This document shows positions 7,693 through 38,017 of a DNA stretch of 64,000 nt, piece by piece. Position 1 is the first letter of the stretch, and every line of letters begins with the position of its first letter. The stretch spans positions 3,453,752 through 3,517,751 of the forward strand of contig OZ246006.1 in the NCBI GenBank assembly GCA_965230505.1, read 5' to 3'. Below the pieces are notes generated by a model. It did not search any database and was not told the DNA's origin. It worked only from the letters and a program-made list of their open reading frames with translations. Source of the DNA: Kangiellaceae bacterium (GTDB taxonomy: Bacteria; Pseudomonadota; Gammaproteobacteria; Enterobacterales; Kangiellaceae). The position numbers and the translations under genes are program-made.

Positions 7693-7697
7693 TATTT

Positions 7698-8389: not shown

Positions 8390-8536
8390 TTTTACTTTCT
8401 AACGGAAGTTAGGATTTTTTGTGAATCCCGCAATGGGATTCTAATAGGGAAATCTGCCGTACACGGACGTTTCTTTTAGTACAAAACTCAGAGCGAAAAC
8501 TAATTTGCTATACTTAACATAACAAGGAGAACGATT

Positions 8537-9115
8537 ATGCAAGCTCAGATCTTGCGACTTAACAAAGCTGGTCAAGCAATGGAGTGGATTAACTTTGAAT
8601 CCGCGGCTTGTTTGTACTCTAAAGATCAAGTGTTGTGGACATTTGGTAAAACTGCTGCACGTCTTAATGGTGGCCATTCGAGACTAACTGGACAACGGTC
8701 TTTTCTTGATATCGCTTCGGTAATCGCTACCGATGGTCAAATCCATCAACGCCATAGCCGTGTACCAGCTTTAAGCAACTACGCGTTATTCCAGCGAGAT
8801 GAGCATTTGTGTATGTATTGCGGAAAGCCTTTTAGTCGTTCAGAGTTAACTCGTGATCATGTTATTCCGCAGGCTCGAGGTGGAAAAAATACTTGGACCA
8901 ATTGTGTCGCGGCATGTAAGCCTTGTAATAATTTTAAGGGGTGTCGTACACCGGAAGAAGCTCACATGAGCCTAATAGCCATTCCATTCCGACCTAATAT
9001 TTCTGAGTACTTAGCTTTAGCGAATAGAAATATACTGGCCGATCAAATGGAGTTTTTGGTGAAAGGATTTTCAAATAATATGCTAGAAAAAGTAAAGCGT
9101 GAGAACAAAAAATAA
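8537..9115 (+). CDS. HNH endonuclease
   Basis: CMYCG...LTRDHVIPQARGG..W.N.VAAC..CN..KG zinc-finger/HNH signature. Good RBS (AAGGAG). Confidence 0.85.
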   Translation: MQAQILRLNKAGQAMEWINFESAACLYSKDQVLWTFGKTAARLNGGHSRLTGQRSFLDIASVIATDGQIHQRHSRVPALSNYALFQRDEHLCMYCGKPFSRSELTRDHVIPQARGGKNTWTNCVAACKPCNNFKGCRTPEEAHMSLIAIPFRPNISEYLALANRNILADQMEFLVKGFSNNMLEKVKRENKK

Positions 9116-11347: not shown

Positions 11348-12229
11348 CTATTTAGACTTCTTTGATTGTAAGTTGGACAGCCATTTCACACTCTGCACAC
11401 CCATTAATGGGAACGAATCACTATGGCCAGATGCTTCGACAACCGTATGGGTTATCGAGGATATACCTTTATAATTTTTGATTTTTAGTTGGCTAATAAA
11501 ATCATCGACATAGGGGCTCAGTTCCTTTTCTAGTTCACCATATGAAATTAAGACGTTAATTCCTAACGGTTGACGGTTTAAAGCGGGATGGGGTTGTGCA
11601 AGGAGTTCTGGACCGCTACGCCAAATGCTTGGACTGCCGAGAATGTAGTTTTTAAATGTGGTGGGTTGTGTCATTAAAGCGTAGGTACCAAATACGCCAC
11701 CTGCAGAAAAGCCGAAATAAGTGCGATTGTCAGGTTCAGTACGATATGTGTTTTCTACAAACTTGAATACGTCATTACGAATAAAAGCGAGGTGATTAAT
11801 CGCTTGTCCAAATTTATACTTGGCCTGCCTTTCAGGGTTGCTCGATTTTCTGAATGAGTAATCACGCATTCGACTAACATGGGCACCACGCTCTTTCAAA
11901 AGTGCTTCTTCAACATCCTTTTGCCAGGATATACCAACTAGAATAACGTCTTCCATCATGAAGAACGTGGCAGAGGATAACAGTTCAATATGCCAGACAG
12001 CATCAGTAAAATAAATAACTGGGTATTGCTTGTCCTCATTTTCCTCATAGCTTTCTGGCAGCTTGATAAGAAGTTCGTATTGTTTGTTCGATTGTGTGTC
12101 CTTGATTGGGACAACCTGGATGCTAGGCATAATGTATGATTTGTGTTCACTTGCACTAGCACTGATAAAAGGCAACAAAAACAACAAAACTAAGACTAAA
12201 CACTTTTTTATATCCATTAATCTACTCAC
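11348..12229 (-). CDS. Alpha/beta-hydrolase esterase
   Basis: Signal peptide. GFSAGG nucleophile elbow (GxSxG). Enterochelin-esterase-like size. Confidence 0.7.
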   Translation of the reverse strand: MSRLMDIKKCLVLVLLFLLPFISASASEHKSYIMPSIQVVPIKDTQSNKQYELLIKLPESYEENEDKQYPVIYFTDAVWHIELLSSATFFMMEDVILVGISWQKDVEEALLKERGAHVSRMRDYSFRKSSNPERQAKYKFGQAINHLAFIRNDVFKFVENTYRTEPDNRTYFGFSAGGVFGTYALMTQPTTFKNYILGSPSIWRSGPELLAQPHPALNRQPLGINVLISYGELEKELSPYVDDFISQLKIKNYKGISSITHTVVEASGHSDSFPLMGVQSVKWLSNLQSKKSK

Positions 12230-12442
12230 CTATATGGTTAAAAAGCTCAAAAGAACTTGTTTGAAACTCAACAACAAATTCAATCTAAAGGATTGCATTA
12301 CGAAACACCTGACGTCTGGCTGATTTTTAAATGACGTTAGACTGAAAGGTCAATTAAGTGATAATTATCAAATAGTTACAATCTTAGGTTTAGGAGGTTT
12401 GAAAGTTTGTGCTAGTATGACTCAGCCGGTTGTCGGTGACTT

Positions 12443-22429: not shown

Positions 22430-23098
22430 GTGGTCATTGAAATCGCATTGGCTCCATCTAATTCTTTTTAGAAGAGCTTGATTTTCTTTGCTTTTGCAAT
22501 TAGACTTCTCGCGACTTACAAATATAGTCATCCATTCATCTAACGCAAAGGAGAAAAAACTATGTTTTATAATCAAATCTTTTGCTGGGTTTTCTTCGAG
22601 TCTTAACACTCTTCTTATTGGCTTGTGTATTAATCGAAAATAAGCCAGCAAAAAACACAACCGTAAGTCTTATAGCTAATAATTAGCCGTTATTGTATCG
22701 CTTTGAATTCATTGCGAGGCTTTGTGCTGTTTGAAAGCTATTCACTAGTTAATAAAAGATTCAATCTAACCTTGTAGGCCAAAGCCCAAAGGTTTGGAGG
22801 TGCATCATGCGTTTTAATAAATCAAATCAACATTTCTTTTTTCGAAAGGACTAGTAAACGTCGAAAAGGATTCCCTTCTGAAACTCAAGTTAAACGTGGC
22901 TATCGAGTGGTACACGGAAACAAAGAGCTATGTGAAAAACTAGGTAGGAATGATCCATGCCCATGTTTATCGGGTCGAAGATTTCAAGCAGTGTTGTTTG
23001 AGCTCTGGCCGATATGATGGTGCGGTTCGAGACTATTATTATAGGGAATAAACCAAGCTAACTAAAAAAACGCGGTACAAAAAGTACTGCGTGCCCGT

Positions 23099-23830
23099 TT
23101 GTGGAAAAAGGAAAATATTATGAGACCAACATACAATAGAAAAACCTCACCCAAGGTTATTGGTGGGCATGTACAAAGAAAGAATAACTATACTAAAACT
23201 GCAAGACTAGGCTATGTAATTGATAGAGTTCGGCCGAATAGAGGGTATATTCATGTCGTTAGCAAAAAAGAAATTCACGACTTTACGGATATTATTCCAG
23301 ATTGGGAAAAAGTTTCCGAAGGTATAGAGTCGATATTTCTAGATCAAGAGGACGAATATACTGATGGATATTATAGGCACTTTGAAAATGAAGGAACCGG
23401 TGTAATTTGGCTCTGCGCATGGCCGAAAGATCTTTGGGTAGAACATAGCGAGTCTTATTATCAGGAGCACAAATGGATCCTCGATATTCTAGGCGTAGTT
23501 TGCGAGAAGGGCGAAAAACAGCGAGAGATTGAAACCTCTAAAGAAAGAGGTGCTGAAGAAAGTAATACTGATGAAAGTAACATCGAAGAACATCAGATAG
23601 AGCCCGAATTTATTTGGACATGCTATTTTACTCTTCAGCAAGCAAAGGCATTTACCTTGATGCATATTTTTCTTCACGAACTTGGTCATCATGTTGATAA
23701 GCTAAGAAGTAAGAAGAAAAATATTATCAGAGGAGGGGAGCCGTTTGCGGAAAACTACGCTAATAGACGTTTTTATGAACTGTGGAGCAGTTACATCAAG
23801 TTATTTGGAAATCCTAATTTGTCCACATAA
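23099..23830 (+). CDS. Hypothetical protein with C-terminal HELGHH zinc-hydrolase-like motif
   Basis: 243 aa. No family recognised beyond the HExxH motif. Confidence 0.45.
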   Translation: MWKKENIMRPTYNRKTSPKVIGGHVQRKNNYTKTARLGYVIDRVRPNRGYIHVVSKKEIHDFTDIIPDWEKVSEGIESIFLDQEDEYTDGYYRHFENEGTGVIWLCAWPKDLWVEHSESYYQEHKWILDILGVVCEKGEKQREIETSKERGAEESNTDESNIEEHQIEPEFIWTCYFTLQQAKAFTLMHIFLHELGHHVDKLRSKKKNIIRGGEPFAENYANRRFYELWSSYIKLFGNPNLST

Positions 23831-24174
23831 GATCTGAGGAAGGTCTCTGAAAGCCTATCTTAATGGATAGGTTTTCAGAGTAATCAAAATTAATCTGTGC
23901 AAATTTTGCAGTTGCAATTATGTAATCGATTGATTAAACTTCGCGCCAACTTGACGTTAGTCATATTTTCTATCACACGTAAACAACCGCAAAGGAGATT
24001 AAAAAATGAATTTAAATAATATCTTTTGCAGGTCACTTCAAAAGTAATTTCGGTTTTAATCAAGCTTTTTCTGCTTACCCATAAAGCCTAAAATATTCTT
24101 ATAATTAGGCCTGCTCATTCCAATAATAGTTTTTAAACTATTAATTTTATAGCTATTAATTTAGGGATTGAACT

Positions 24175-25344
24175 ATGGGCAATCACAATGGATTTAATAT
24201 CCAAACATTGTCTGCGAGCGTTAATTTAATCGCCAATGCAGACACTTGGATCGAAGGTAAAGCGATCCAACAATTACAAAAAACAGCAGAGTTAGAAGGG
24301 GTTGTTAAGGCAGCAGGTATGCCGGATCTACATCCAGGAAGAGGTTATCCAATTGGCGCTGCTTTTTTAACGAAAAACAAAATTTACCCCGCTCTTATCG
24401 GGAATGATATAGGCTGCGGTATGACTTTATGGGCCACTGATATTAAAGTTAGAAAGGTGAACCTTGATAAATTTGAGAAGCGTCTTGAAAGTATTGATGA
24501 GCCGTTAACTGCAGACTGGCAAGACTATATCTCTGAAAGATATCGAAATAAAGCGTTATCTTCCAGCGGGTTTGAAAGAGCGCTCGGGACAATAGGAGGA
24601 GGGAATCATTTTGCTGAGCTACAGCGGCTTGATCAAGTCATTGATGAAGCGATTGTTAGTGAACTAGAAATTGATAAGAAGCATTTAGTCTTGTTAGTTC
24701 ACAGTGGCTCTAGAGGATTAGGCGAGCGTATTTTAAGAGCACATGTTGATAGTTTTGGTCATGCAGGCTTAGCGACTAATAGCGATGAATGTAATCAATA
24801 CATTGAACAGCACAACATGGCGATTAAGTTTGCGGAAATTAATCGTGAGTTAATCGCAAAGCGAATGCTTGATAATTTGCATGCCAAAGGAAAGGTGCTT
24901 TTGGATGTCAATCATAACTTAGTGACTGAAAAAATGATCGATAATCAATCGCACTGGATCCACCGCAAGGGAGCGACCCCTGCTGATTGTGGCTTAGTGA
25001 TGATGCCAGGTTCGAGAGGGGATTATAGTTACTTAGTGCACCCGAATGTTGATGCAGAGCTTGGATTTGAAAGTCTCTATTCGCTAGCGCATGGCGCAGG
25101 ACGTAAATGGATGCGGACTGAATGCAAAGATCGATTGTCAAAACGGTATCGACAATCGGACTTAGAAAGAACCGCACTAGGTAGTCGTGTTATTTGTAAG
25201 AATAAGGCACTGATTTTTGAAGAAGCACCTGAGGCTTACAAGCCAATATCATCAGTGATAGCGGCTATGCAGGAAGCGGGCTTGATTAAATTGGTGGCAC
25301 GATTTAAACCTGTTTTAACGTATAAAACAAGCGGAGGCTGCTAA
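24175..25344 (+). CDS. rtcB: RtcB-family RNA ligase, release-factor-H-coupled type (RtcB2)
   Basis: Metal/GTP-site motifs DLHPGRG, GCGM, GGGNHF, HSGSRGLG, HGAGR. Stop overlaps the prfH start. Confidence 0.9.
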   Translation: MGNHNGFNIQTLSASVNLIANADTWIEGKAIQQLQKTAELEGVVKAAGMPDLHPGRGYPIGAAFLTKNKIYPALIGNDIGCGMTLWATDIKVRKVNLDKFEKRLESIDEPLTADWQDYISERYRNKALSSSGFERALGTIGGGNHFAELQRLDQVIDEAIVSELEIDKKHLVLLVHSGSRGLGERILRAHVDSFGHAGLATNSDECNQYIEQHNMAIKFAEINRELIAKRMLDNLHAKGKVLLDVNHNLVTEKMIDNQSHWIHRKGATPADCGLVMMPGSRGDYSYLVHPNVDAELGFESLYSLAHGAGRKWMRTECKDRLSKRYRQSDLERTALGSRVICKNKALIFEEAPEAYKPISSVIAAMQEAGLIKLVARFKPVLTYKTSGGC

Positions 25345-25988
25345 TGATTTTATTACAACTATCCGCTGGGCAAGGTCCTGCTGAGTGTTGCCTAGCAGTT
25401 GCCAAAGCCATGGTTTTATTAGAGAAAGAAGCAAAGAAGTTGGATGTTATTCTTAGTCTGGTAGAAGAGGTTAATGGCCTCGAACGAAGGACTACTAAGT
25501 CGGCATTATATCGCTTAGAGGGAAAGGCATCATCAGAGCTAGCGCAAAAATGGAGTGGAACAATGCAATGGGTTTGTCAAAGTCCTTATAGGCCAAAACA
25601 TAAAAGAAAGAACTGGTTCTTTACGGGTAGTTATAGTGAACATGCCGAGATGAATTTCTCTAAAGCGATCACCTATGAAGCTTGTCGCTCTTCTGGACCG
25701 GGTGGGCAACATGCTAACAAGACAAGTTCAGCTGTGCGAGCGACTCATCTTGATTCGGGTATTTCTGTCAAAGTTCAATCAGAACGCAGTCAGCATATGA
25801 ACAAGCGATTGGCGAAAGCTTTGATTGAAGTGAAATTGGCTGAAAGCCAAAGAGATTCGGAACAGATAGAAAAAGGCAATAGACATAAGTCTCATCATTC
25901 GATTGAGAGAGGAAATGCAATTAGAGTCTTTAAAGGACCCGATTTTCTAACTGTAGTCACTGATGAGGAACAACGAAATGAGGTATAG
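25344..25988 (+). CDS. prfH: Peptide chain release factor H
   Basis: MILLQLSAGQGPAECC N-terminus and SGPGGQHANKTSSAVRATHL GGQ motif. Close to E. coli PrfH. Confidence 0.9.
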   Translation: MILLQLSAGQGPAECCLAVAKAMVLLEKEAKKLDVILSLVEEVNGLERRTTKSALYRLEGKASSELAQKWSGTMQWVCQSPYRPKHKRKNWFFTGSYSEHAEMNFSKAITYEACRSSGPGGQHANKTSSAVRATHLDSGISVKVQSERSQHMNKRLAKALIEVKLAESQRDSEQIEKGNRHKSHHSIERGNAIRVFKGPDFLTVVTDEEQRNEV

Positions 25989-26358
25989 AAGAGTGACTCC
26001 TCAAGAAAAAAAGATTAGGGATTACCTATACCAAACGACTAATTGTTATGGGTATAACGACAAAAACTCTAGAATTGCTATTCGAAAGAATAAAGCATCG
26101 AACTCGCGTACTTATCGAAGAAAGGTTCAAGGTGAGTTAGGGAGAGTTTTTGATGATCTTGACATGGTCGAACATCAAATAGCATGTATTAGGAGGGGGA
26201 ATTGGAAAAAATTTCCTGACGAGTGTTTATTAAAGTCATTTGAACATAAGTGGTCTGATAACAGTCGTACTTGTCATCTTGAAGATGATAAACGAACACT
26301 ACAAAATGAAGCGTTAAAACGGCTTAATAAGATTAAGACTCGTGAGTATTGGTATTAA
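25963..26358 (+). CDS. Hypothetical basic 131-aa protein
   Basis: ORF overlaps the prfH 3' end by 26 nt. Lys/Arg-rich. No family recognised. Confidence 0.35.
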   Translation: MRNNEMRYRRVTPQEKKIRDYLYQTTNCYGYNDKNSRIAIRKNKASNSRTYRRKVQGELGRVFDDLDMVEHQIACIRRGNWKKFPDECLLKSFEHKWSDNSRTCHLEDDKRTLQNEALKRLNKIKTREYWY

Positions 26359-26528
26359 TTTTTTAAACTACTGTTATAGCTTTTTGGATAACGAATAAAA
26401 CAGGAGAATGAAAGTAGTACTTTCAGCAATGAGTATGTAATACCTAGCAAAACAACAATAAGGAAGTATAAGGGACTCTACTTCAATTAAGAAGAGTCTG
26501 TCACAATGCATTTAAAAGGAGTAGGACT

Positions 26529-27242
26529 ATGAATACTCAAGTGAAAAATAGGCGATTTAAATATCCGAGGACCATGCATTTACCATGGTCTCCGGGATTT
26601 ACAGACGATGATGTAAAAGGAGCAAGTTCAGAAATCTTTAATGGTCGAGAGGTTGTCATCACGGAAAAAATGGACGGTGAGAATACGACGTTATATAACG
26701 ATCATACTCATGCTCGTTCAATCGATAGTCGTCATCACCCATCTAGAGATTGGCTAAAGCGATGGCATGCAGAGTTCGCACATGAAATTCCATCCGGTTG
26801 GAGAATTTGCGGAGAGAATCTTTATGCGCAGCATTCAATTGTTTATGACAAGTTAGAAAGTTATTTTTATGGCTTCTCGATATGGAATGACAAAAATTAT
26901 TGCCTTAGTTGGGATGAAACCTTGGATTGGTTTCGTTTGCTCGAAATTACAACGCCAAAGGTGATCTATCGAGGGCTTTGGGATGAAAAACTTGTCCGTA
27001 GCATCAAGTTAGATACAGATGTCGTAGAAGGTTATGTTGTGCGGCTAGCCGAGCAATTTGATTTTGATAGTTTTAACTCTAGCGTTGCCAAATGGGTAAG
27101 AAAAGGACATGTACAAACGGATAAACACTGGATGCATGCAGAGCTGAAGCTAAATGGTTTAGCTGAAGTTAAATTCGAACACCAACTTGAGCCGTATAAA
27201 GCGACAATAGAAAATAAGGAGGTATCGAATGAAACCAAATAA
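26529..27242 (+). CDS. ATP-dependent RNA ligase (RNA_ligase/Rnl-type nucleotidyltransferase)
   Basis: YPRTMHLPWSPG N-terminal motif and KMDGEN (KxDG lysine-adenylylation motif I). Confidence 0.7.
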   Translation: MNTQVKNRRFKYPRTMHLPWSPGFTDDDVKGASSEIFNGREVVITEKMDGENTTLYNDHTHARSIDSRHHPSRDWLKRWHAEFAHEIPSGWRICGENLYAQHSIVYDKLESYFYGFSIWNDKNYCLSWDETLDWFRLLEITTPKVIYRGLWDEKLVRSIKLDTDVVEGYVVRLAEQFDFDSFNSSVAKWVRKGHVQTDKHWMHAELKLNGLAEVKFEHQLEPYKATIENKEVSNETK

Positions 27243-28497
27243 AAACAAAAAAGTAAATGCTTGGTTAAACGAGTTAGCCTCCAAGGCTAAACCTGATGTT
27301 AACGAATGCATTGAATACTTGGGCGAGAACTTTGAGTGGCTATACGAACTCAAAAATACACCTCAAGATCCTGAGTGGCACGCTGAAGGAAACGTACACA
27401 TCCACACAGATATGGTGCTCGCAAAGCTTTACAATTTGCTGGATAACGAAGCTTCTCATCTTAACGGCAAGCAACGACAAGCATTGATACTGGGCGCGCT
27501 TTTCCATGATATAGCTAAACCTATGCGGACGAAGAAAATAGAGATTAACGACGTTTTGCGAGTGGTTAGCCCACAACATGAATCAGTTGGTCGCTCCTAT
27601 CTAGCCTTTAAGCTAATGGAGTTGGAGCTTGAATTTGATGTAGTTTGGAATGTCTTAGGTTTAGTTGGAGAGCACCATATGCCAAAGTTGTTGGCTGTTA
27701 GAAACAAGGCAAAGGGTGATTACCTTGCTCTATCTCGGCGAGCAAACCTCGAACTCTTGTATTGGTTAGAAACCGCGGATATGAAAGGCCGAAGTTGCCC
27801 CGATTTGCCTTTGCAGCTACAACATTTGGCGGAATTTAAAATGTTTGCTGAAGAATATGGTGTTTGGAATAAACCCCATGAACTTGAGCAGGATTTTCTC
27901 AAGCTAGTTGAAGCTGAGAGTGACTCCATGGCGAGCTATATTCAGGCGTATGCTGTGTCAGAGTTAGAAAGTGGTGTTATTTCTCTACCCATTGAGGCGG
28001 TCGCTCGCACATTTGAATATAGGGAAAGCTATTCGAACTTGGTAGTCATTTGTGGTCCGAGTGGTTCAGGAAAAACCACTTGGATAGGAAATAACTGTGC
28101 AGACCATGTGCTGATTTCTCTTGACGATATAAGAGAAGAAATCAACGGAGATCGTAGAAGCCAGAAAAACAAGGGAAAGGTCATTCACCTTGCTCGAGAC
28201 CGACTGAAGCAGGCCTTGCGGAATAAACAAGATGTCGTTTGGGATGCGACTAATCTGCGCTCAGATTTCAGAAAAATCATTTGTGATCTCGGGCGTGATT
28301 ATCATGCCTTAGTCACCATTGTTTTGTTTATGTTGCCGGAGTCAATTATTTACCAAAATAATCGAAATCGAGAGTATGCGGTTCCGGAAGATGTATTGCT
28401 TAAGCAGTTTGAAGATTTTCAGTTTCCGTTAGTCAATGAGGCGCATTATTTTCAGATTGTTGGTGAGAAGGGGGAACTGCTTTTTTCGAACGAATAA
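27229..28497 (+). CDS. HD-domain phosphohydrolase fused to P-loop polynucleotide kinase (Pnkp-like RNA end-healing enzyme)
   Basis: HD motif (H...LFHDIAKP) in the N-terminal half. GPSGSGKTT Walker A and kinase-like C-terminal half. Start overlaps the ligase gene. Confidence 0.7.
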   Translation: MKPNKNKKVNAWLNELASKAKPDVNECIEYLGENFEWLYELKNTPQDPEWHAEGNVHIHTDMVLAKLYNLLDNEASHLNGKQRQALILGALFHDIAKPMRTKKIEINDVLRVVSPQHESVGRSYLAFKLMELELEFDVVWNVLGLVGEHHMPKLLAVRNKAKGDYLALSRRANLELLYWLETADMKGRSCPDLPLQLQHLAEFKMFAEEYGVWNKPHELEQDFLKLVEAESDSMASYIQAYAVSELESGVISLPIEAVARTFEYRESYSNLVVICGPSGSGKTTWIGNNCADHVLISLDDIREEINGDRRSQKNKGKVIHLARDRLKQALRNKQDVVWDATNLRSDFRKIICDLGRDYHALVTIVLFMLPESIIYQNNRNREYAVPEDVLLKQFEDFQFPLVNEAHYFQIVGEKGELLFSNE

Positions 28498-28593
28498 AGA
28501 CTATTACAAGGATTAGACCATGAGATATCGTTTAATTTTAAAAGAAAAGGGATTTGTTATCCATTAGTTAAATTCAACTAATGGAGAACAAAA

Positions 28594-28797
28594 ATGAAAT
28601 GTAATTATTTTCGCTACCCCAATAGCACCAATGAAATGCGACAGTTCTATGCGTCTAATGACAATGAACTAGGAATCCGTATTAAAGTTCGAGGAAGAAG
28701 AAGGCCTAAAAGGTTACCGAATTCTTGGGATGATATTAATTCAGAGAATCAACGGTGCTGGAAGACTCGGCGCAAAAATCAATGGAAAGTCACTTAG
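28594..28797 (+). CDS. Small basic hypothetical protein (67 aa)
   Basis: GGAG RBS 8 nt upstream. No similarity recognised. Confidence 0.3.
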   Translation: MKCNYFRYPNSTNEMRQFYASNDNELGIRIKVRGRRRPKRLPNSWDDINSENQRCWKTRRKNQWKVT

Positions 28798-28988
28798 AAC
28801 TAGTTCTGGTGACTTTCTATTAATTAAATCTCAGATGACGGACGATTCTAATTTATGGCAACCCGATACGGTGATTGAATCAAAGACCATTGTATCTGCT
28901 AGATAGTGCATTGTCGGGTATCGCTACAAGCTCAACACCGACCTACTTTGAGTCGACTTGTGTTTCTAGGATAATGGGCCGCCCAAAA

Positions 28989-29762
28989 TTAGAGCACCCG
29001 ATGAAATAACTCATTCAACTCCTCAAAGTCGAAACTTCTCCCCAATTCAGTGCCACTATAATCTTCAAGCCTTTCAAGCTGAGAGGTAATAAACTGATTA
29101 ATAACAGGTACCGCCGGCGCAATCTCTTTTTCCATGGCTTGCTTTTTTCGCTCGATCAAATCGGTAATTGCTAAATCAAGTTCGGAACCTGTCTCAAGCA
29201 TTTGCCTGAGAGTATCAAACTCAATGGGTGCTGGCGTACGATACTTCTCCATCCACAAGATCGAGAGCAACGGTCTTAAAACGTAAAAATATTTCTTAAG
29301 TGGAACCATTGGTTTACGCAAATATCCTCTATAGTTGGTTTTAGCCATACTTCGATAATGGTATATCCCTTTATTAATCGAGTAGCTCGACGCCAGCATT
29401 TTCCTAGCAGACTCAGCGAATACTCCGTCGTCTCGATAGACAATAGATGAGTGCAGCCATTCAACAAATGAAGGGTTGGATTTTTTGAACAGCCTTAATG
29501 CTTTGCGAACATCCCATCCGCTGATATCTATTTCATCGACAATCGGGTATTCGATAACGTCGCGTTTCTCCTCGAGATCAACAGCGACATACCAATCTTT
29601 GGGATGGGCATAGATAAACCTGACATCATAGTCACTGTTAGGTGAAGCAAACCCCCAGGCTCTACTGCCTGATTCGACAGCGTAGAGGACTTTTACATTG
29701 TGCTCTTGTTCTGCAGCATCGATTCTTCGTTGAATTTCTTGTTCTATTTCTTTTGGTATCAT
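28989..29762 (-). CDS. RlaP-type (pol-beta superfamily) nucleotidyltransferase
   Basis: GSRAWGFASPNSDYDVRFIY nucleotidyltransferase core, typical of the RNA-repair-associated PF10127-like family. Confidence 0.65.
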   Translation of the reverse strand: MIPKEIEQEIQRRIDAAEQEHNVKVLYAVESGSRAWGFASPNSDYDVRFIYAHPKDWYVAVDLEEKRDVIEYPIVDEIDISGWDVRKALRLFKKSNPSFVEWLHSSIVYRDDGVFAESARKMLASSYSINKGIYHYRSMAKTNYRGYLRKPMVPLKKYFYVLRPLLSILWMEKYRTPAPIEFDTLRQMLETGSELDLAITDLIERKKQAMEKEIAPAVPVINQFITSQLERLEDYSGTELGRSFDFEELNELFHRVL

Positions 29763-29795
29763 GGTAATACTTCTTTGTTATTCGTTCTATTCAGT

Positions 29796-30767
29796 TTATT
29801 CGTTTATTTGCTTGGTGACCAACCGGTTCTTATCCAAGTGATATCTATCAAGATCATTAGCCAACCAAAGGTTACCCCTAAAATATTGCTTAGCTTCGTT
29901 TTCAACCTCGTCAATAGAATCGGATTTATCACTGTCAGGCTGATAGCGCGCACTGAAGTGAGTAAGAATCAAATTCTTAATACCCGATTGCTCCGCAAAT
30001 TGAGCGACTCTCTTAGCGCAACTGTGTTGTGGTCCTGAACCTACTTTTTCTGAAACAGCGCTAGTGTAGGTCGACTCATGAACCAATAGGTCCGCTTCTT
30101 TTGCCGCTTGCGCTAAAAGGTCTGGGGTATCATTATCACCACCGATAACGATCTTTCTCGCTCTCTCTAATGGTAAATAGCAATCGGTGGCTTGGATTTC
30201 TTGTCCATTGTCTAGCGTAATTGACTGACCACTTTGAAGCTGACCCCATAAAGGTCCTCGTTCAATACTCAGTTTTTGTAACTTATCAACATCCAATCGA
30301 TTTGAGCGATTATTCTCAGTGAAGCTATAAGCAAAACTCGGCACTCGATGAGAGAGTTCAATCGCTTCGATTTTAAATTCCTTATCCTTATCATATAAAC
30401 CAAGTGATTCCGCAGAAACAAACACTATCGAGTAATTTAAGTATGTATCGGTTAGCTTAAACGTTGATGTAACGAATTCTTCGATACCTTTTGGCGCAAT
30501 AATAGTTAATGGCTCAGTGCGACCTGTCATTGCGGTAGTTGCTAGTAGTCCCGGTAATCCGTAACAATGGTCACCATGCACATGAGTAATGCATATTGTC
30601 TTTAAGTTTTTTAAAGACAGTTTTGTATGCAATAGTTGATGTTGCGTGCCTTCGCCACAATCGATTAGGGTCCATGATTTGCTGTCTTGTTTTTTTAATG
30701 CAAGACCGCTGACATTTCGGGATTTTGTTGGGACTCCGGAGGAGGTTCCTAAGAATGTGATTTCCAT
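29796..30767 (-). CDS. rnz: Ribonuclease Z / BN (tRNA 3' endonuclease, metallo-beta-lactamase fold)
   Basis: FLGTSSGVPT..RNV, DCGEGTQHQLLHT, HVHGDH..GLPGLL. Near-collinear with E. coli RNase BN. Confidence 0.85.
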   Translation of the reverse strand: MEITFLGTSSGVPTKSRNVSGLALKKQDSKSWTLIDCGEGTQHQLLHTKLSLKNLKTICITHVHGDHCYGLPGLLATTAMTGRTEPLTIIAPKGIEEFVTSTFKLTDTYLNYSIVFVSAESLGLYDKDKEFKIEAIELSHRVPSFAYSFTENNRSNRLDVDKLQKLSIERGPLWGQLQSGQSITLDNGQEIQATDCYLPLERARKIVIGGDNDTPDLLAQAAKEADLLVHESTYTSAVSEKVGSGPQHSCAKRVAQFAEQSGIKNLILTHFSARYQPDSDKSDSIDEVENEAKQYFRGNLWLANDLDRYHLDKNRLVTKQINE

Positions 30768-30948
30768 ATTGTTCTATCTTTTTGAGTTATAAATTAAATT
30801 TTAAGTTCAAAAGCGTTTCGCATCGCTTTGCTTGTATGCGACCTACTTTTGCCAAGAGCTGCAAAAATAGGCAAAAGAGCCCTCGTTTCAGCGAACTAGA
30901 ACAGTGCTTGTTGCAAGTTTTAACAAAATTTCCACATCTAGCTTGTTG

Positions 30949-31388
30949 TAAGCGAATCAAAGGGAAGAGAAAAACTCGCTGCGCTCAAACAATTCTCTTC
31001 CTATTCTTTGATTCATTCATTTCAGGTTGCCGTTCACAAGCACTAGGCAGAAAGGCATGATTTCCTAGCTCCCTTCGACTCTGCTCAGGACACCGCGCTT
31101 CGACTCCGCTCAGGGCAACGCCCAGCACATTTTTTAACTTTTGACCTTCGCCCAGTGCCTACGAACGAGACATTGAAACTCATGAATTCAAAGGTCAGAA
31201 GGAGAGTTGTTTGAGCACCGCGAGTTCTCTCCTTCCTTTGAATTCACTTTCAACAAGTTCCTAGACTGAAATCATGTTTTAGCTTTCAAAGTTCTCCAGA
31301 CTAGTTCGTTTAACGTGAAGCGCTTTTGCATACTTTTGGGGCTTAAGCCAAAAGTTTGTCGCAGTCAGAGCGCAGCGCTGCGAAACGC
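30949..31388. repeat. ~440-bp structured repeat, copy A
   Basis: About 80% identical to 34484-34888. Contains two mutually inverted long hairpins and a palindromic stem CTTTTGG..CCAAAAG. Confidence 0.85.
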
Positions 31389-31427: not shown

Positions 31428-32573
31428 TCATCTCTCTGCAATCTTAACCATATCCTTCATAACTCCCTCCAATCCATTGTAAACAGTCATTTGGTCAATC
31501 TTACCAGTAATTCGTTCCAATACCTCTAATTCCTTTAGACGCATTAGAGTTGCATTGCCTTCCATTACCTTTGCCGTGTTATGCAATGAGCGTGTCGCCT
31601 GAGTTTCTTCGCGACGTTTAATTAAGTTAGCTTCGGCACATTTTTGTGCTTCAACCACTTGATTTAAAATGCTCTTCATATCACCTGGCAAGATAATGTC
31701 TTTCACACCGACATCCAATACTTGTAGTCCGTAGGTGAGGGCTTTTTCCTTGATCTGCTTTTCTACTACTTGATTCACAATATCCTTGTCTTGCAATATA
31801 GCATCAAGTGTTCGAGTACCAACTACTTCTCTTAATGCCAGTTGAAATTCTCGATACAAGAATTCAGAATGGTTCTTAAGCAAAGTAGCAACTTTTTCAG
31901 TTTCAGCAATTTTGTAACTTGCAGACAAGTTAACACGCAAACTAACTCGATCTTTGGTCAGTATTTCTTGACCGCTGACTTCCATGGTTTGCAAGCGACA
32001 ATCCAATCGAGTGACCTCGATATTTCGATTGAAACGCCAGTATCCATAGTTGCCTGGTTGCAAAAGGCTTTCAAGCTTTCCGTTAACTTTCAAAAGCCCA
32101 ACATGGTTATCTGGGACTTCGATGTAGTAGATTGCACTCACGCCGGCGCTATAAATGGTACTTACTTTATTGCGGACTAGTGCAGCAAGTAATTTTCCAT
32201 CAACTTGAAAGCGATCCTCTATATCAAGAATCTTAACTTCGACTTTGACTGCCAAATTCCAGTACATTTTAAACGTGTTTGGTGCAAGTATATCTACCAG
32301 CTTATCGTCAAAATAAACGACACCAACTTGATTTTCCTTAATATCAAAACTAATAACTTGCTCGCCTAAGTGCTCACCGTAAGCGGTTATCAAGAAGCGT
32401 CCCAAGTGGTGATTCAATTCCGCTTTAGTAATATCATAGCGAAACAGGGTCACCGCGCCGGATAAATCAAACACTCGATGTTGGCCTGGTTCGAGTATTT
32501 TTTCAAATCTGTTTTTTCTAAATGCCAATACACGTTCGTTATCAGCCACATTAATTATTTTCATTCCTAGCAT
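31428..32573 (-). CDS. SPFH/band-7 (slipin-like) domain protein
   Basis: C-terminal 200 aa show the SPFH pattern (TKDRVSLRVNLS...LREVVGTRTLDAIL...GLQVLDVGVKDIILP). Confidence 0.7.
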   Translation of the reverse strand: MLGMKIINVADNERVLAFRKNRFEKILEPGQHRVFDLSGAVTLFRYDITKAELNHHLGRFLITAYGEHLGEQVISFDIKENQVGVVYFDDKLVDILAPNTFKMYWNLAVKVEVKILDIEDRFQVDGKLLAALVRNKVSTIYSAGVSAIYYIEVPDNHVGLLKVNGKLESLLQPGNYGYWRFNRNIEVTRLDCRLQTMEVSGQEILTKDRVSLRVNLSASYKIAETEKVATLLKNHSEFLYREFQLALREVVGTRTLDAILQDKDIVNQVVEKQIKEKALTYGLQVLDVGVKDIILPGDMKSILNQVVEAQKCAEANLIKRREETQATRSLHNTAKVMEGNATLMRLKELEVLERITGKIDQMTVYNGLEGVMKDMVKIAER

Positions 32574-32969: not shown

Positions 32970-33046
32970 TGGTTACTTAGGTCGGAATCGAACCGACTAC
33001 CTATAGAGTAAATATCTATTGCTCTACCCAAATGAGCTACAAAGTA
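32970..33046 (-). ncRNA. tRNA-Lys(TTT)-like gene with A33 and one acceptor mismatch, located inside the rtc operon
   Basis: On the minus strand: TACTTTG acceptor, GCTC-ATTTGGGTA-GAGC D-arm, ATAGA-TATTTAC-TCTAT anticodon arm, GTCGG-TTCGATT-CCGAC T-arm, CTAAGTA-A-CCA. Confidence 0.5.
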
Positions 33047-33226: not shown

Positions 33227-34264
33227 TCAAGATTTTAGTCCCGTGATTACCACTTTCACTGTGTCTTCATCTATTTCGGTCACGCTAATGGCGTTGTCAA
33301 TAAATCGATTGATCACATCTATATTCGTTGTTACATGCTCGCTCATAGAATGAGTAATAAAGCTTCCGCCTTTACTTAAGACCATTGGCAACAATAGCTG
33401 ATCGGCTAAATGTTCACCAACCACAGCTTTTGAATTAAGAAATCGATTCAATTTTTTAATCGCTTTACCAGCGACTCGCTCAGCAGTGACTCCTTTTTGT
33501 GCCACTTCATCAAATAATTCTGTCGTATTCTCAAACTCTAAGCTCAATGAAATTAAGTTGCCGGGACCAAATGCCTCGACTTCTTTTTCAAGTAGCTCTT
33601 CAGAACTCCAATTCAATTTTTGAACAACTTTTTTCAACTCTCTTTGACTCACCGACATTGGGATCTTTGAAGTAAAAGTTGTGGCGTTCCTTGCCACTAG
33701 ATCACCTCTATCTAACATTTTTAACCTTCTTGTTTCTTTTTTCGGCTTAATGATTGCTGTCCACTGACCACCACCATTAGGGTAGAAACCATATCTGTCT
33801 AGCTTGCAGTCAACCCTATGTCCAATCTTACTAATCGCTTTATTAAAGCTCTTAGTAATAAACTCATAACTAGGCGCTTGCATATTGTGAGTACCGCCTT
33901 CCAAACTCACAGATGATTCTCCTTCAGCTTGAAGTAATGCTGGTAAGATGGTTTGGAAAACCAAACTAGTACTACCTGCCGTACCGATAGCAAATCGATA
34001 CTCCCCACATTTTATTTTCCCTGGAGCGAAGTCGATATAACTTGATTTAAGTTCATCACCCTCGACCTGAGCATCACAGATTGTTTTAGCTGCTCGAACG
34101 CAGGTTAAGTGCTGGCGGAGTAGCCCTGGTTTTTTTCTTCCTGCTCGAATGTTTTCAATTCGAATGGGAGTTTGTAAACACATTGATAGAGAGAGGGAAG
34201 TGCGGAGGATTTGTCCACCGCCTTCGCCTTGGCTGCCATCAATAGTGATTTTTTGCTTATTCAT
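33227..34264 (-). CDS. rtcA: RNA 3'-terminal phosphate cyclase
   Basis: IDGSQGEGGGQILRTSLSLS and near-collinearity with E. coli RtcA. Confidence 0.9.
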   Translation of the reverse strand: MNKQKITIDGSQGEGGGQILRTSLSLSMCLQTPIRIENIRAGRKKPGLLRQHLTCVRAAKTICDAQVEGDELKSSYIDFAPGKIKCGEYRFAIGTAGSTSLVFQTILPALLQAEGESSVSLEGGTHNMQAPSYEFITKSFNKAISKIGHRVDCKLDRYGFYPNGGGQWTAIIKPKKETRRLKMLDRGDLVARNATTFTSKIPMSVSQRELKKVVQKLNWSSEELLEKEVEAFGPGNLISLSLEFENTTELFDEVAQKGVTAERVAGKAIKKLNRFLNSKAVVGEHLADQLLLPMVLSKGGSFITHSMSEHVTTNIDVINRFIDNAISVTEIDEDTVKVVITGLKS

Positions 34265-34483
34265 TTCATTCTCGTCAATTTTTATTTAAGTGCCTATTTC
34301 GCAGCGCTGCGCTCCGACTGCGGCAGTTTTTTGCTCCTGCAAAAACTGCATACCGGTCATCCGTGACCATAACTTACTTTTGCCCAAAGCGGCGAAAGTA
34401 ACCAAAAGCGCTTTCCGTTTCAGCGAACTAGTTATTTACTTGTTGTTAGTTCACCTATTATTTTTACGGCTTTACTTGCTGTG

Positions 34484-34888
34484 AGCGAATCTAAGGGAAG
34501 AAAAAAACTCGCTGCGCTCAAACAATTCTCTTCCTATTCTTTGATTCGTTCATTCCACATTGCCGTTCACAAGCACTCGGCAGGAATGCGATACCTCCTA
34601 TCTCCTATCTCCTATCTCCTAGCTCCATCTGTTCTTTTATCTTCCGCCCAGTGCCTACGAACGACACATTGAAACTCATGAATTCAAAGAACAGAAGGAG
34701 AGCTGCCTGAGCACCGCGAGTTCTCTCCTTCCTTTGAATTCACTTACAGCAAGTTCCGTCACGGAAATTGGGTATGTACTCTAAGCAAATTCGAATCAAG
34801 TTCGTTTTAACGTGAAGCGTTTTTGGCTACTTTTGCCGCTTAGGGCAAAAGTGACTCGCATGCAAGCGCAGCGATGCGAAACGCCTTT
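34484..34888. repeat. ~440-bp structured repeat, copy B (contains a (CTCCTAT)x4 microsatellite at 34596-34623)
   Basis: Homologous to 30949-31388. The palindromic stem shows a compensatory change (CTTTTGC..GCAAAAG versus CTTTTGG..CCAAAAG). Confidence 0.85.
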
Positions 34889-34930
34889 GATCTTCAAAGC
34901 TGTTTAAATCAGCTAAAAAGCTGACCCAAA

Positions 34931-36181
34931 CTACCCCTTAACACATACAACCTGCTTCAAAGTATGTACTACTTCAACCAAATCACTCTGTGCTTCCATG
35001 ACCTTATCAATATCCTTATAAGCTGATGGTGTCTCGTCAATCACATCCTTATCTTTTCGACATTCAACACCTTTGGTTGCTTGCAAATGTTCTTCCATTG
35101 AAACCACTTTTTTAGCTTGGGTTCTTGACATCACTCGCCCTGCGCCATGACTACAACTACAAAAGCTATCTTGGTTTCCGAGTCCCCTAACTATGAAGGA
35201 TCTTGCTCCCATACTTCCGGGAATAATCCCCATCTCACCCTCCCTGGCTCTCACTGCTCCTTTCCTCGTCACAATGACATTCTTACCAAAGTGATGCTCC
35301 CTTGAGATGTAGTTATGATGACAGTTCACCGCTTCTAAACTTGCCTCAAACTCAAAGCTCAAACTTGATTTAACTGCGGCAATCACTCTTTGCATCATCA
35401 CCTCTCTGTTAGTTCTTGCGAAGTTTTGAGCCCACTCAACAGCTTCTACATAATCGTTAAAGTGGTCGCTTCCTTCAGGCAAATAGGCCAAATCTTTATC
35501 CGGCAAGTTGATATGCCAACGTTGCATATCTTTTTTAGCCTGTTCGATAAAGTGAGTTCCAATTCTGTTTCCCACACCTCTCGAACCGCTATGTAACATA
35601 AACCAAACTTGATTTTTTTGGTCTAAGCAGACTTCGATAAAATGGTTTCCAGTTCCCAATGTTCCTAAGTGTGCTACGTTGTTAGTGTTCTTTAACACAG
35701 CGTGTTTTTCACATAATCGATCAAAATCTGGCGACAGGTTTTTCCATGCTCCAATAACATCAGCCGGTAAATCATTCCATGAGCCTTTATCTCTTCCTCG
35801 TCTCGCTCGAGCTGAACGTCCATGTGGTACTGCTGCCTCAATGGCGGTTCTAATCGCAAACAAATTGTCAGGTAGTTGACTAGCATTCATCGACGTTTTA
35901 ACGGCCATCATTCCGCAGCCGATATCAACACCAACCGCCGCTGGAATAACCGCACCTAATGTTGGCACTACGCTTCCAATCGTCGCACCTTTACCAAGGT
36001 GAACGTCCGGCATAGCAGCGACCCATTTATGGATAAAAGGCAGAGAAGCAATATTCTTCAACTGTTGTCTGGCTTTATCTTCAAACGGTACACCTTTGGT
36101 CCAAGACTTAATCGGTACACCGGTTGATTGCATGACTTCGTAGTTTGCCGGAGTTGCTTTTGTTTCAGTATTAATTTCCAT
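34931..36181 (-). CDS. rtcB: RtcB RNA ligase (canonical)
   Basis: HLGKGATIGSV, GVDIGCGM, GTGNHFIE, HSGSRGVGN, CSHGAGR. 416 aa. Confidence 0.95.
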   Translation of the reverse strand: MEINTETKATPANYEVMQSTGVPIKSWTKGVPFEDKARQQLKNIASLPFIHKWVAAMPDVHLGKGATIGSVVPTLGAVIPAAVGVDIGCGMMAVKTSMNASQLPDNLFAIRTAIEAAVPHGRSARARRGRDKGSWNDLPADVIGAWKNLSPDFDRLCEKHAVLKNTNNVAHLGTLGTGNHFIEVCLDQKNQVWFMLHSGSRGVGNRIGTHFIEQAKKDMQRWHINLPDKDLAYLPEGSDHFNDYVEAVEWAQNFARTNREVMMQRVIAAVKSSLSFEFEASLEAVNCHHNYISREHHFGKNVIVTRKGAVRAREGEMGIIPGSMGARSFIVRGLGNQDSFCSCSHGAGRVMSRTQAKKVVSMEEHLQATKGVECRKDKDVIDETPSAYKDIDKVMEAQSDLVEVVHTLKQVVCVKG

Positions 36182-36240: not shown

Positions 36241-36258
36241 AGCGAGCAGCGTGCCAAC
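36241..36258 (-). promoter_or_regulatory. Sigma-54 promoter for rtcB (TGGCAC-N5-TCGCT on minus strand)
   Basis: The reverse complement of 36241-36257 reads TTGGCACGCTGCTCGCT. The GG and GC elements sit at consensus spacing, about 60 nt upstream of the rtcB ATG. Confidence 0.6.
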
Positions 36259-36421: not shown

Positions 36422-38017
36422 ATGAAAACCACTGTAATTAGTATTTTAGGGACTAATTTAGATAGAAGAGGGCGTAATGCAATACGTTGGGACAAGTGGC
36501 GACCCAATATCGCCTTGTGTCAGCAGGAAGATTTGATTGTCGACAAATTGGTGTTATTACATGAGCCAAATTTTGAAAAATTAGCGGTTCAAGTTAAGGA
36601 TGATATTAAGGTAGTCTCGCCGGAAACAGAAGTGGTGTTTTATTCGGTGGATTTTTCCAGTCCTTGGGATTTTGAGTCGGTTTATAGTCAGCTTTATGAT
36701 TTTAGTCAGAAGCATCAATTTAATACAGAGCAAGAAGAGCTCTTGATCCATATCACTACCGGCACTCATGTTGCTCAAATTTGTTTGTATCTGCTTACTG
36801 AAACTCATTACCTGCCAGGTAAGCTTTTTCAAACATCGCCTGGTAATAAAGACAATCCGACCGCAGGTAATTATCAAATCATTGATTTGGACTTATCTAA
36901 ATATGATCAAATTGCATCGCGCTTCAACCAAGAAAGATTGACTGGCGCTGACTTTTTGAAATCTGGAATTGAAACAAGAAATATCAAGTTCAACAAGATG
37001 ATACAGCAAATCGAAAAGGTTTCTCTACTCTCTAAAGAGCCGATGTTAATTACCGGTGAAACCGGCGCGGGTAAAACTCGACTGGTAAAACGTATTTATG
37101 AATTAAAACAAAAACGAGGACAAGTCACGGGTAAGTTTGTGGTAGTCAATTGCGCCACTTTAATCGGCGATAAAGCAATGTCAGCATTATTTGGGCATAG
37201 TAAAGGTGCTTTTACTGGCGCATTAAATGCTAGGAATGGCTTATTAAAGGAAGCGGATGGTGGTTTATTATTTCTGGATGAAATTGCAGAGTTAGGTCTT
37301 GATGAGCAAGCAATGTTGTTAAAGGCTATAGAGGAAAAAAGCTATCTGCCCTTGGGAGCTGACAGTGAAGTAAAAAGTAACTTTCAATTGATCGCCGGAA
37401 CCAACCACAATATCAATGAGACCGTTGCCAAAGGAGGGTTTAGAGAGGATTTATTAGCTAGAATTAACCTTTGGAGCTATCAGTTACCATCACTCAAAGA
37501 CCGAATAGAAGACTTAGAACCTAACTTAGACTTTGAACTTAGACAGTTTGCCAAAAAAGCCGGTCACATGGTTAGCTTCAACAAAGCTGCACGAACTCTT
37601 TATTTGAACTTCGCCAAATCACCAGAAGCACTTTGGAGTGCAAATTTTAGAGATTTAAACTCCAGTGTGACTCGAATGGCGACCTTATCGGAAGGAGGGA
37701 GAATTTCGGAAAACGAAGTTAAAGAGGAAATTATTAGATTAAAACAGCAATGGCTAGGGCAGGTTAGAATTGCCGAGGAACCCGAGCAAACTGCAATTGA
37801 TATACTTGGGGCTAACCGAGCCAAAGAGTTAGACAATTTGGAAAAATATACTTTAGTAGGGGTTCAAAGCATTTGTCGCCAATCCAACTCAATGGCAGAA
37901 GCCGGTAGAAAGTTATTCAATGTTTCTCGTTTAGAAAAGAAGTCGAAAAATGATTCTCATCGTTTGAAGCAGTTGTTGACCAAGTACGGTTTGACTTTTG
38001 AAGAGCTGAAGAGCTGA
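36422..38017 (+). CDS. rtcR: Sigma-54-dependent transcriptional regulator RtcR
   Basis: N-terminal CARF-like domain (LVLLHEP...ITTGTHVAQIC). AAA+ sigma-54 activator core (GETGAGKT, GAFTGA). C-terminal HTH. Collinear with E. coli RtcR. Confidence 0.9.
   Translation: MKTTVISILGTNLDRRGRNAIRWDKWRPNIALCQQEDLIVDKLVLLHEPNFEKLAVQVKDDIKVVSPETEVVFYSVDFSSPWDFESVYSQLYDFSQKHQFNTEQEELLIHITTGTHVAQICLYLLTETHYLPGKLFQTSPGNKDNPTAGNYQIIDLDLSKYDQIASRFNQERLTGADFLKSGIETRNIKFNKMIQQIEKVSLLSKEPMLITGETGAGKTRLVKRIYELKQKRGQVTGKFVVVNCATLIGDKAMSALFGHSKGAFTGALNARNGLLKEADGGLLFLDEIAELGLDEQAMLLKAIEEKSYLPLGADSEVKSNFQLIAGTNHNINETVAKGGFREDLLARINLWSYQLPSLKDRIEDLEPNLDFELRQFAKKAGHMVSFNKAARTLYLNFAKSPEALWSANFRDLNSSVTRMATLSEGGRISENEVKEEIIRLKQQWLGQVRIAEEPEQTAIDILGANRAKELDNLEKYTLVGVQSICRQSNSMAEAGRKLFNVSRLEKKSKNDSHRLKQLLTKYGLTFEELKS

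Follow-up and report, generated by a model that had tools for sequence, protein, structure and literature searches.

The interval 24175-30767 of the window, a stretch of 64,000 nt of contig OZ246006.1 (positions 3,453,752 to 3,517,751) from a Kangiellaceae bacterium, encodes RNA-repair enzymes and spans parts of two convergent gene sets. It is not the single composite cassette proposed in an earlier reading made from the sequence alone (the sequence-only reading), since the nucleotidyltransferase RlaP and RNase Z, which had been counted in that cassette, are the last genes of a minus-strand rtc operon. The plus-strand set (A) has the order leader open reading frame (ORF), rtcB2, prfH, orf131, rnl, hd-pnk, and orf67; the minus-strand set (B), an operon of the RtcR/sigma-54 type, has the order rtcB, rtcA, b7a-tRNA (a tRNA associated with Band-7), band7, rnz, and rlaP, and the two sets converge with their ends about 500 bp apart. 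RlaP and RNase Z are indeed convergent with the RtcB2 set, as had been stated, but the operon structure does not make them partners of RtcB2, because they form the tail of the rtcB-rtcA-b7a-tRNA-band7 operon. In the window and in the counterparts from Pseudoalteromonas, RlaP, a 5'-phosphate ligase, a healing enzyme, both RtcB types, and PrfH are all found within 12 kb. The locus is an uncommon arrangement of known parts with three rarities: RtcB2-PrfH upstream of Rnl-HD-Pnk, RNase Z-RlaP in an rtc operon, and a tRNA array in the rtc cluster of one relative.

The ORFs derive from a six-frame list, with which the positions given in the sequence-only reading agree exactly, and the domains were assigned by Pfam and NCBIfam scans with curated cut-offs. 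The features of set A are the following.

24006-24047, plus strand: leader ORF of 13 codons (MNLNNIFCRSLQK) with a strong Shine-Dalgarno (SD) sequence, AAGGAG, 128 nt upstream of rtcB2
24175-25344, plus strand: RtcB2, PrfH-associated 3'-phosphate RNA ligase (PF01139, 2e-79)
25344-25988, plus strand: PrfH, release-factor homologue for the rescue of ribosomes damaged in the decoding centre (TIGR03072, 272 bits against 166.65)
25963-26358, plus strand: orf131, basic protein of no known family, overlapping prfH
26409-26446, plus strand: inverted repeat TGAAAG-N5-CTTTCA with the motif ATGTAATACCTA, candidate regulatory region upstream of rnl
26529-27242, plus strand: Rnl, minimal ATP-dependent adenylyltransferase of the RNA-ligase family (PF09414, 2.9e-30, model positions 1-171 of 171)
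27229-28497, plus strand: HD-Pnk, HD 2',3'-phosphoesterase and P-loop 5'-OH polynucleotide kinase (HD, AAA_33)
28594-28797, plus strand: orf67, small basic protein matching the C-terminal part of phrog_12793 (2.7e-11)

Set B and its putative regulatory elements comprise the following.

28989-29762, minus strand: RlaP, Pol-beta nucleotidyltransferase, last gene of the operon (PF10127, 3.2e-84, 283 bits, model positions 1-248 of 249)
29796-30767, minus strand: RNase Z, tRNA 3'-end nuclease (TIGR02651, 310.6 bits against 292.95), in which the HxHxDH motif reads HVHGDH
31428-32573, minus strand: Band-7/SPFH protein (PF01145, 3.3e-29)
32970-33046, minus strand: b7a-tRNA, tRNA-like gene next to band7 (ARAGORN; Rfam tRNA, 56.7 bits)
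33227-34264, minus strand: RtcA, RNA 3'-phosphate cyclase (PF01137, 2.9e-77)
34931-36181, minus strand: canonical RtcB (PF01139, 3.5e-133)
36241-36256, minus strand: candidate sigma-54-like -24/-12 promoter TGGCACgctgcTCGCT in the rtcR-rtcB intergenic region, which fits the consensus with 2 mismatches and is separated from the downstream rtcB by about 60 nt
36422-38017, plus strand: RtcR, CARF-type sigma-54 activator divergent from rtcB (PF06956, 2.5e-78; Sigma54_activat, 1.3e-46)

Strong full-length Pfam or NCBIfam matches were obtained for RtcB2, PrfH, the RNA_ligase-family ligase, the fusion of HD and kinase domains, RlaP, and RNase Z, and the hidden Markov model searches that the sequence-only reading had proposed as a check upheld the ligase, HD-kinase, and RlaP assignments. 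The second rtc operon that it had noticed is present, with domain matches for RtcA, RtcB, and RtcR, and two ligation chemistries are encoded as it had described, RtcB acting on 3'-phosphate/5'-OH ends and Rnl with HD-Pnk predicted to act on 3'-OH/5'-phosphate ends. The label Pnkp for the healing enzyme has to be corrected to the HD-Pnk type; in fact, the bacterial Pnkp model TIGR04075 gives 55.8 bits against a cut-off of 750, and only its kinase positions 9-134 of 851 are matched.

RtcB2 scores above the models of PrfH-linked RtcB proteins (TIGR03073, 563 bits versus 271.8; NF007153, 565 bits versus 407) and is encoded directly upstream of PrfH, the stop codon of rtcB2 and the start codon of prfH sharing base 25344. 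PrfH is a protein of 214 aa devoid of RF domain 1, with a GGQ motif located within SSGPGGQHANKT; it aligns over its full length with E. coli PrfH (PDB 7sa4_8, residues 1-202, 2.6e-65) and belongs to the E. coli type, which is characterized by the absence of a long C-terminal tail. The pair is like that of E. coli ATCC25922 in genes, order, and overlapping stop/start codons (PMC9304027, PMC9223846, PMC13166195), from which it differs in preceding the co-directional orf131 and Rnl-HD-Pnk and in facing an rtc operon. In E. coli, PrfH frees the peptide from ribosomes in which colicin E3 has cleaved the 16S rRNA, and the broken strand is rejoined by RtcB2 (PMC9304027, PMC9223846); the sealing at A1493/G1494 has been shown only for the E. 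coli RtcB2 (PMC9304027). The genes listed as joining RFH-RtcB include a TPR protein, a Pol-beta enzyme other than RlaP, ZnR, and charged-helix proteins, and Rnl/HD-Pnk are absent from that list (PMC6514570).

Rnl reaches 106 bits with PF09414 (cut-off 27), and the residues of its KxDG, EG, and K motifs (K47, D49, G50, E167, G168, and K188) are invariant in sets of 26 and 30 homologues. No PDB relative was found by sequence or profile search, and Foldseek on the confident AlphaFold2 (AF2) model (pLDDT 87) retrieved only the nucleotidyltransferase (NTase) domains of Rnl5, Rnl3, and Rnl2, with TM values of about 0.44-0.53 and 13-19% identity. On these grounds Rnl, which has no appended domain and fits none of the named families Rnl1-Rnl5, is placed in the RNA ligase superfamily as a minimal, stand-alone protein, and its predicted chemistry is the joining of 5'-phosphate and 3'-OH ends. 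The rnl and hd-pnk ORFs overlap by 14 nt. In HD-Pnk, residues 59-156 make up the HD domain (25.5 bits against a cut-off of 22), and AAA_33 covers residues 271-398 (1.7e-25); the residues H59, H93-D94, H117, H149, D184, G276-K282 of the GxxGxGK(S/T) motif, D299, and R302 are invariant in 20 homologues, and the nearest solved relative of the kinase part is the kinase domain of C. thermocellum Pnkp (PDB 4gp6, 5.6e-13). Work by Munir and Shuman from 2017 is said to have found that HD-Pnk strips 2',3'-cyclic, 3', and 2' phosphates and phosphorylates 5'-OH ends, and the Runella enzyme reportedly heals both DNA and RNA ends. Removal of the same three phosphates and 5'-OH phosphorylation are summarised in PMC6097658.

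The closest known counterpart, judged by its published description, is the ligase/HD-Pnk pair of Runella slithyformis (PMC6097658), which shares the N-terminal HD and C-terminal kinase and has the ligase ORF upstream and overlapping; the Runella cluster adds Tpt1 and an MTase-HIT protein, neither of which was found here, whereas the partners in the window are RtcB2-PrfH and RlaP. The heal-and-seal logic, in which a phosphoesterase and a 5' kinase precede an ATP-dependent ligase, is that of phage T4 Pnkp with Rnl1 and of bacterial Pnkp/Hen1, from which the present enzymes differ in that the phosphoesterase has an HD fold where those systems use a HAD or calcineurin-like one, a separate protein of minimal size serves as ligase, and no Hen1 methylase is present. 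The gap between the prfH/orf131 unit and rnl amounts to 170 nt, and the inverted repeat with ATGTAATACCTA also lies upstream of stand-alone rnl-hdpnk copies in the loci L002, L004, and L005 (related loci are designated L followed by a number). Since rnl-hdpnk keeps the upstream motif of the stand-alone copies, rtcB2-prfH and rnl-hdpnk look more like two juxtaposed units than like a single fused operon. Promoter and terminator scans gave counts no higher than the shuffled expectation and were not used. Further downstream, orf67 is 73% identical in L001, and a divergent second RNA-ligase paralogue is found 3' of hd-pnk (rnl-hdpnk-rnl') in the stand-alone loci L004, L015, L016, L018, L031, L041, L063, and L069.

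Set B resembles the Pseudomonas-type locus rtcR, band-7, rtcB, rlaP, rtcA (PMC12776372, PMC13086221), both combining RtcR, RtcB, RtcA, Band-7, and RlaP. In contrast to that locus, rlaP is here the last gene and is preceded by RNase Z, the Rnl-HD-Pnk unit lies opposite, and HEAT, HNH, cREC (cyclic-phosphate processing receiver), and tRNA array genes are inserted in relatives. A band7 gene co-occurs with rtc genes in L001, L003, L022, L024, L029, L046, L048, and L081-L083. RlaP has the GS...DxD motif of Pol-beta enzymes in the form GSRAWGF...SDYDV, and sequence and profile searches for it returned nothing in the PDB. According to PMC12776372, RlaP extends 3'-OH ends of RNA by one or two nucleotides, with a preference for damaged RNA, and its 3'-OH products are incompatible with RtcB and compatible with 5'-phosphate ligases. 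In L001 (metagenome-assembled genome OZ246008.1), rnz is kept in the rtc operon and rlaP is replaced, at 11881-12774, by an unrelated ORF of 297 aa with no family match. The intergenic gaps of the rtc region (34265-34930 and about 30780-31060) contain repeat-like sequence, made up of palindromic elements that are short and rich in GC (e.g., TTTTGCC...GGCAAAAG) and of a tandem repeat of the GATAGGA type, which is expanded in L001 (18174-18468). The rtc region and the array hold no Rfam family besides tRNA, and the Y-RNA-like element that was sought gave only a weak YrlA match (24.6 bits versus 69).

The gene neighbourhoods were compared through an HD-Pnk alignment scan with one genome per species, the window proteins being mapped onto the best 80 of 303 loci. 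Rnl is directly upstream of HD-Pnk in 75 of these 80 loci, and the pair occurs in Proteobacteria, Cyanobacteria, Deinococcota, Verrucomicrobiota, Planctomycetota, and Chlamydiae. All-against-all clustering of the neighbours in the same 80 loci revealed no other widely shared gene, so that Rnl-HD-Pnk is a free-standing module, and the neighbours that do recur are RNA-repair genes only. RtcB2-PrfH is directly upstream of Rnl-HD-Pnk in 10 of the 80, from 3 Kangiellaceae and 7 Pseudoalteromonas species; in a rough HD-Pnk tree, the composites of the two groups fall into separate clades, and many lineages without the composite branch off between these. The same juxtaposition is present in the metagenome loci L081, L087, L089, and L108, and in a PrfH-based metagenome scan the succession of PrfH and Rnl was confined to the closest relatives (L087, L089, and L108), most pairs having no such neighbour.

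The rtc/Band-7/RlaP set, in turn, directly adjoins hd-pnk at its 3' end, both in the window and in L003, L081, L024, L029, L046, and L089. In P. prydzensis, the minus strand carries an operon with the order b7a-tRNA, band7, rtcB, rtcA, a CCA-adding-type nucleotidyltransferase, rlaP, and a SpoU methylase. From the Kangiellaceae and Pseudoalteromonas neighbourhoods it follows that the whole cluster recurs, rearranged, in two lineages of marine bacteria: the same modules are together in Kangiellaceae L001, L003, and L081 and occur in other orders in Pseudoalteromonas L024, L029, and L046. The RNA-damage-response cluster postulated in the sequence-only reading is thus recurrent, as borne out by the comparison across genomes which it had suggested. 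Its view that the combination is unusual is correct for the combination, which is uncommon, and not for the parts, since each module is already described: the RtcB2-PrfH of E. coli, the ligase/HD-Pnk of Runella, the Pseudomonas-type rtc operon with Band-7 and RlaP inside it, and the Band-7/tRNA-like pair with b7a-tRNA. The literature searched did not cover the 2016 survey that defines RlaP and b7a-tRNA, which may list some of these neighbourhoods, and contained no RtcB2-PrfH beside Rnl-HD-Pnk, no conserved RNase Z-RlaP pair in an rtc operon, no rtc cluster enclosing a tRNA array together with cREC and HNH, and no rtcB2 leader ORF.

With moderate confidence, the modules can be read as cooperating in the multi-route repair of toxin-cleaved rRNA and tRNA, and the two gene sets might be co-regulated. 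By homology to the E. coli pair, PrfH would release the peptide from ribosomes stalled by a cut of the colicin-E3 type in 16S rRNA, and RtcB2 would reseal the nick with 2',3'-cyclic phosphate and 5'-OH ends. Breaks still carrying a 3'-phosphate would go directly to RtcB or RtcB2, whereas those that have lost the phosphate or a nucleotide would be healed by HD-Pnk, refilled by RlaP, an activity taken from homologues elsewhere, and sealed by Rnl. By homology to Runella HD-Pnk, the HD domain would remove 2',3'-cyclic, 3', or 2' phosphates and the kinase would phosphorylate the 5'-OH, leaving the 3'-OH/5'-phosphate ends that Rnl is predicted to seal; the route through HD-Pnk, RlaP, and Rnl would supply the 3'-OH/5'-phosphate chemistry that RlaP needs and that RtcB cannot use. 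RNase Z, or the CCA-adding enzyme in Pseudoalteromonas, might trim tRNA 3' ends or process the tRNAs encoded in the operon.

Several observations weigh against such cooperation. About 85% of the sampled Rnl-HD-Pnk pairs and most PrfH-RtcB2 pairs stand alone, so neither module needs the other; the rtc operon of Pseudomonas has RlaP without Rnl-HD-Pnk (PMC12776372); L001, the closest relative (91% identity), has lost RlaP yet keeps everything else; rnl-hdpnk retains its own upstream motif, so that co-transcription with rtcB2-prfH is no more than possible; and the Runella ligase self-adenylylates but sealed none of the 3'-OH/5'-phosphate substrates tested (PMC6097658). In addition, RNase Z passes a housekeeping equivalog model, and its orthologues of about 55% identity in Hahella, Thalassomonas, and Marinicella have unrelated neighbours.

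Part of this evidence would be expected if the genes were independent, horizontally mobile modules gathered as in defence islands, each handling its own lesion, an explanation which is possible and which we regard as less than probable. In this respect, every module is found alone in most of the sampled genomes, and Rnl, RlaP, cREC, and orf67 have close phage relatives. The slot between prfH and rnl has four different contents, namely orf131, SF0329 (L003/L081), an LMWPc-like phosphatase (Pseudoalteromonas), or nothing (L087/L089). The replacement of RlaP in L001 and the regulatory motif of rnl-hdpnk point in the same direction. Nevertheless, the two HD-Pnk clades that show the same juxtaposition are separate and differ in accessory genes and gene order, and the end chemistry of RlaP fits Rnl/HD-Pnk and not RtcB, both of which speak against co-location without cooperation. 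PADLOC made no defence-system assignment. The occupant of the slot in the window, orf131, is kept in L001 (79%) and L014 (60%) and has no Pfam, NCBIfam, PHROG, or PADLOC match; a relationship to SF0329 or to orf67 was considered and the comparison showed none.

The role of RNase Z deserves separate consideration. In the window, L003, L081, L082, and L083 (Aliikangiella), rnz directly precedes rlaP and the pair follows rtcB-rtcA-band7, the four RNase Z proteins outside the window being 58-68% identical to that of the window; this family-level conservation suggests, without proving it, a role of RNase Z in the operon. RNase Z could instead be a housekeeping enzyme of tRNA 3' processing that plays no part in repair and whose gene only happens to keep synteny with the rtc operon in Kangiellaceae, an alternative which we consider rather unlikely. 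Its score above the equivalog cut-off and the unrelated neighbourhoods of the orthologues of about 55% identity favour this alternative, as does the absence of RNase Z from the Pseudoalteromonas clusters. The idea that RNase Z is present because the array tRNAs lack CCA was rejected, all the array tRNAs read encoding CCA, so that the window array creates no obvious special need for the enzyme. On the other hand, the adjacency of rnz and rlaP persists over RNase Z identities from 58 to 95% while the neighbouring HEAT, HNH, and tRNA array vary among the Kangiellaceae loci, the ORFs of the two share 4 nt in L082, where rnz directly follows the tRNA array and HNH, and the corresponding position in Pseudoalteromonas is occupied by other tRNA-end enzymes, a CCA-adding-type enzyme and the SpoU methylase.

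That Rnl/HD-Pnk acts on DNA ends or another substrate instead of RNA is very improbable, since the failure of the Runella ligase to seal any tested substrate and the reported healing of DNA as well as RNA ends by Runella HD-Pnk, which would agree with it, are set against a ligase that belongs to PF09414, has a fold best matching the NTase domains of RNA ligases, and has only RNA-repair genes as recurrent neighbours.

The tRNA-like gene of the rtc operon belongs to the b7a-tRNA family, predicted by Burroughs and Aravind as cited in bioRxiv 10.1101/312249, and shares with the Band-7/b7a-tRNA system described there the position beside Band-7 in an RtcB cluster. It occurs in 10 orthologous loci (the window, L001, L003, L081-L083, L022, L048, L024, and L046), among which pairing in the cloverleaf reaches 95%, 12 of the 21 pairs have undergone compensatory changes, and the anticodon loop is hypervariable. 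In particular, the anticodons are UUU, GUU, UUG, and UAU in Kangiellaceae, all with A33 instead of U33, and CAU with U33 in Agarilytica and Marinibactrum. These anticodons are those of tRNAs typically attacked by anticodon nucleases, and a function of b7a-tRNA as decoy, sensor, or nuclease-resistant spare would fit. Its interpretation as a tRNA-Lys-like gene serving as integration site of a genomic island was dropped, as it is a conserved b7a-tRNA inside the operon.

The leader ORF contains a conserved RNA motif, TTTGCAGGTC, with the nucleotide form TTTGCAG(G/A). Fourteen related loci have an equivalent of 13-15 codons with a strong SD sequence ahead of rtcB2, and in E. coli K-12 (L167, NC_000913.3, 2741-2788) the leader ORF, unannotated there, precedes an rtcB2 remnant, so that its conservation extends from E. 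coli to marine Gammaproteobacteria. TTTGCAGGTC is retained at the nucleotide level although Kangiellaceae and Pseudoalteromonas read it in different frames. Its candidate pairing partner is GGCCTGC at 24108-24114, and the complementary segment changes in step with the leader motif in L090 and E. coli, a covariation which is suggestive only; single-sequence helix searches for a partner of the motif were not significant against shuffles, and minimum free energy folds reached z-scores of only -1.5 to -2. Ribosome-mediated attenuation, through which the leader ORF would sense damaged ribosomes, is an attractive hypothesis, and offers a testable idea of how the ribosome-repair pair RtcB2-PrfH is switched on; the RtcB2-PrfH literature searched mentions no leader and does not deal with this switch. 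Directly upstream of rtcB2 there is also orf243 (23099-23830), with a HELGHH (HExxH) motif and no family match, which has the same position in L014 (61% identity) and is absent from the other relatives; it is closely preceded, at about 22940-23020, by a degraded SEC-C-like motif.

A distal block of the window (4758-9115) includes the following features.

4758-8040, plus strand: tRNA array
8078-8389, plus strand: cREC (cREC_REC, 3.9e-28)
8537-9115, plus strand: HNH (HNH_5, 1e-18)

The tight linkage of this array to the repair genes, claimed in the sequence-only reading, is not found in the window, where it lies 16-22 kb away, about 16 kb from rtcB2, with unrelated genes between, and holds for L082, where the array is inside the rtc cluster. 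The array-cREC-HNH block is in fact collinear with that of L082, which has the order rtcB, rtcA, b7a-tRNA, band7, 14 tRNAs, cREC, HNH, rnz, rlaP, and HNH homologues are present in the rtc clusters of L083 and L048 (Aliikangiella and Marinibactrum, respectively). The notion of an island is therefore backed by the relatives, the block being split off in the genome of the window. A remnant of the array lies beside orf243-rtcB2 in L014. In cyanobacteria such as Anabaena, long tRNA arrays are known that have a conserved HNH gene and rtcB as neighbours and whose induction follows translational stress (PMC8421152); the link of a tRNA array and adjacent HNH to RtcB is shared with them, and the differences are that the arrays described here are gammaproteobacterial and that in L082 the array is inside an operon of the RtcR type with cREC, RNase Z, and RlaP.

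Two genes of the array, Leu-UAG (4858-5036) and Pro-UGG (6822-6990), are interrupted in the T-loop by an insertion of 79 nt (at about 4936-5014 and 6882-6960), which separates position 58 from position 59. The insertions, with about 90% identity between the two copies, fold into four small hairpins with some compensatory differences, and the orthologous genes of L082, of which the Pro exons differ from those of the window at one position, have no insertion. The element matches no Rfam family and was found neither in viral contigs nor in the other loci compared; it may represent either a small mobile element by which the genes were inactivated or an intron dependent on a nuclease and a ligase such as RtcB. 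Other unusual members of the array lie at 5152-5237, 7693-8040, and 7002-7122, the last being a tRNA-like gene of 121 nt that has a long extra arm and is shared with L082; they include a tRNA-Sec-like match below threshold (40.5 bits versus 47). Furthermore, one tRNA gene of the array is split by about 290 nt, and a 25-bp inverted repeat flanks the gene.

A broader and much more speculative proposal, to which we assign little credence, is that the cluster and the distal tRNA block form one integrated translation-rescue programme, in which the leader ORF would sense the state of the ribosome and switch on RtcB2-PrfH, HD-Pnk, RlaP, and Rnl would carry out gap-filling, and the array would supply replacement tRNAs whose 79-nt insertions would be excised and rejoined by the enzymes of the island. 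If this were true, the incompatibility between the RlaP product and RtcB would be solved, the substrate of the orphan HD-Pnk ligase would be toxin-cut tRNA or the rRNA of PrfH-released subunits, and splicing of the T-loop insertions would represent protein-dependent tRNA splicing in a bacterium.

If the modules act independently, the locus is only a tidy example of the clustering of repair genes. The locus bears on two questions raised in the literature, namely what the HD-Pnk-linked ligase seals (PMC6097658) and how RlaP, which leaves a 3'-OH, works with RtcB, which needs a 3'-phosphate (PMC12776372), and it points to testable substrates, nicked tRNA or 16S rRNA, and to the combinations of enzymes with which they may be tried.

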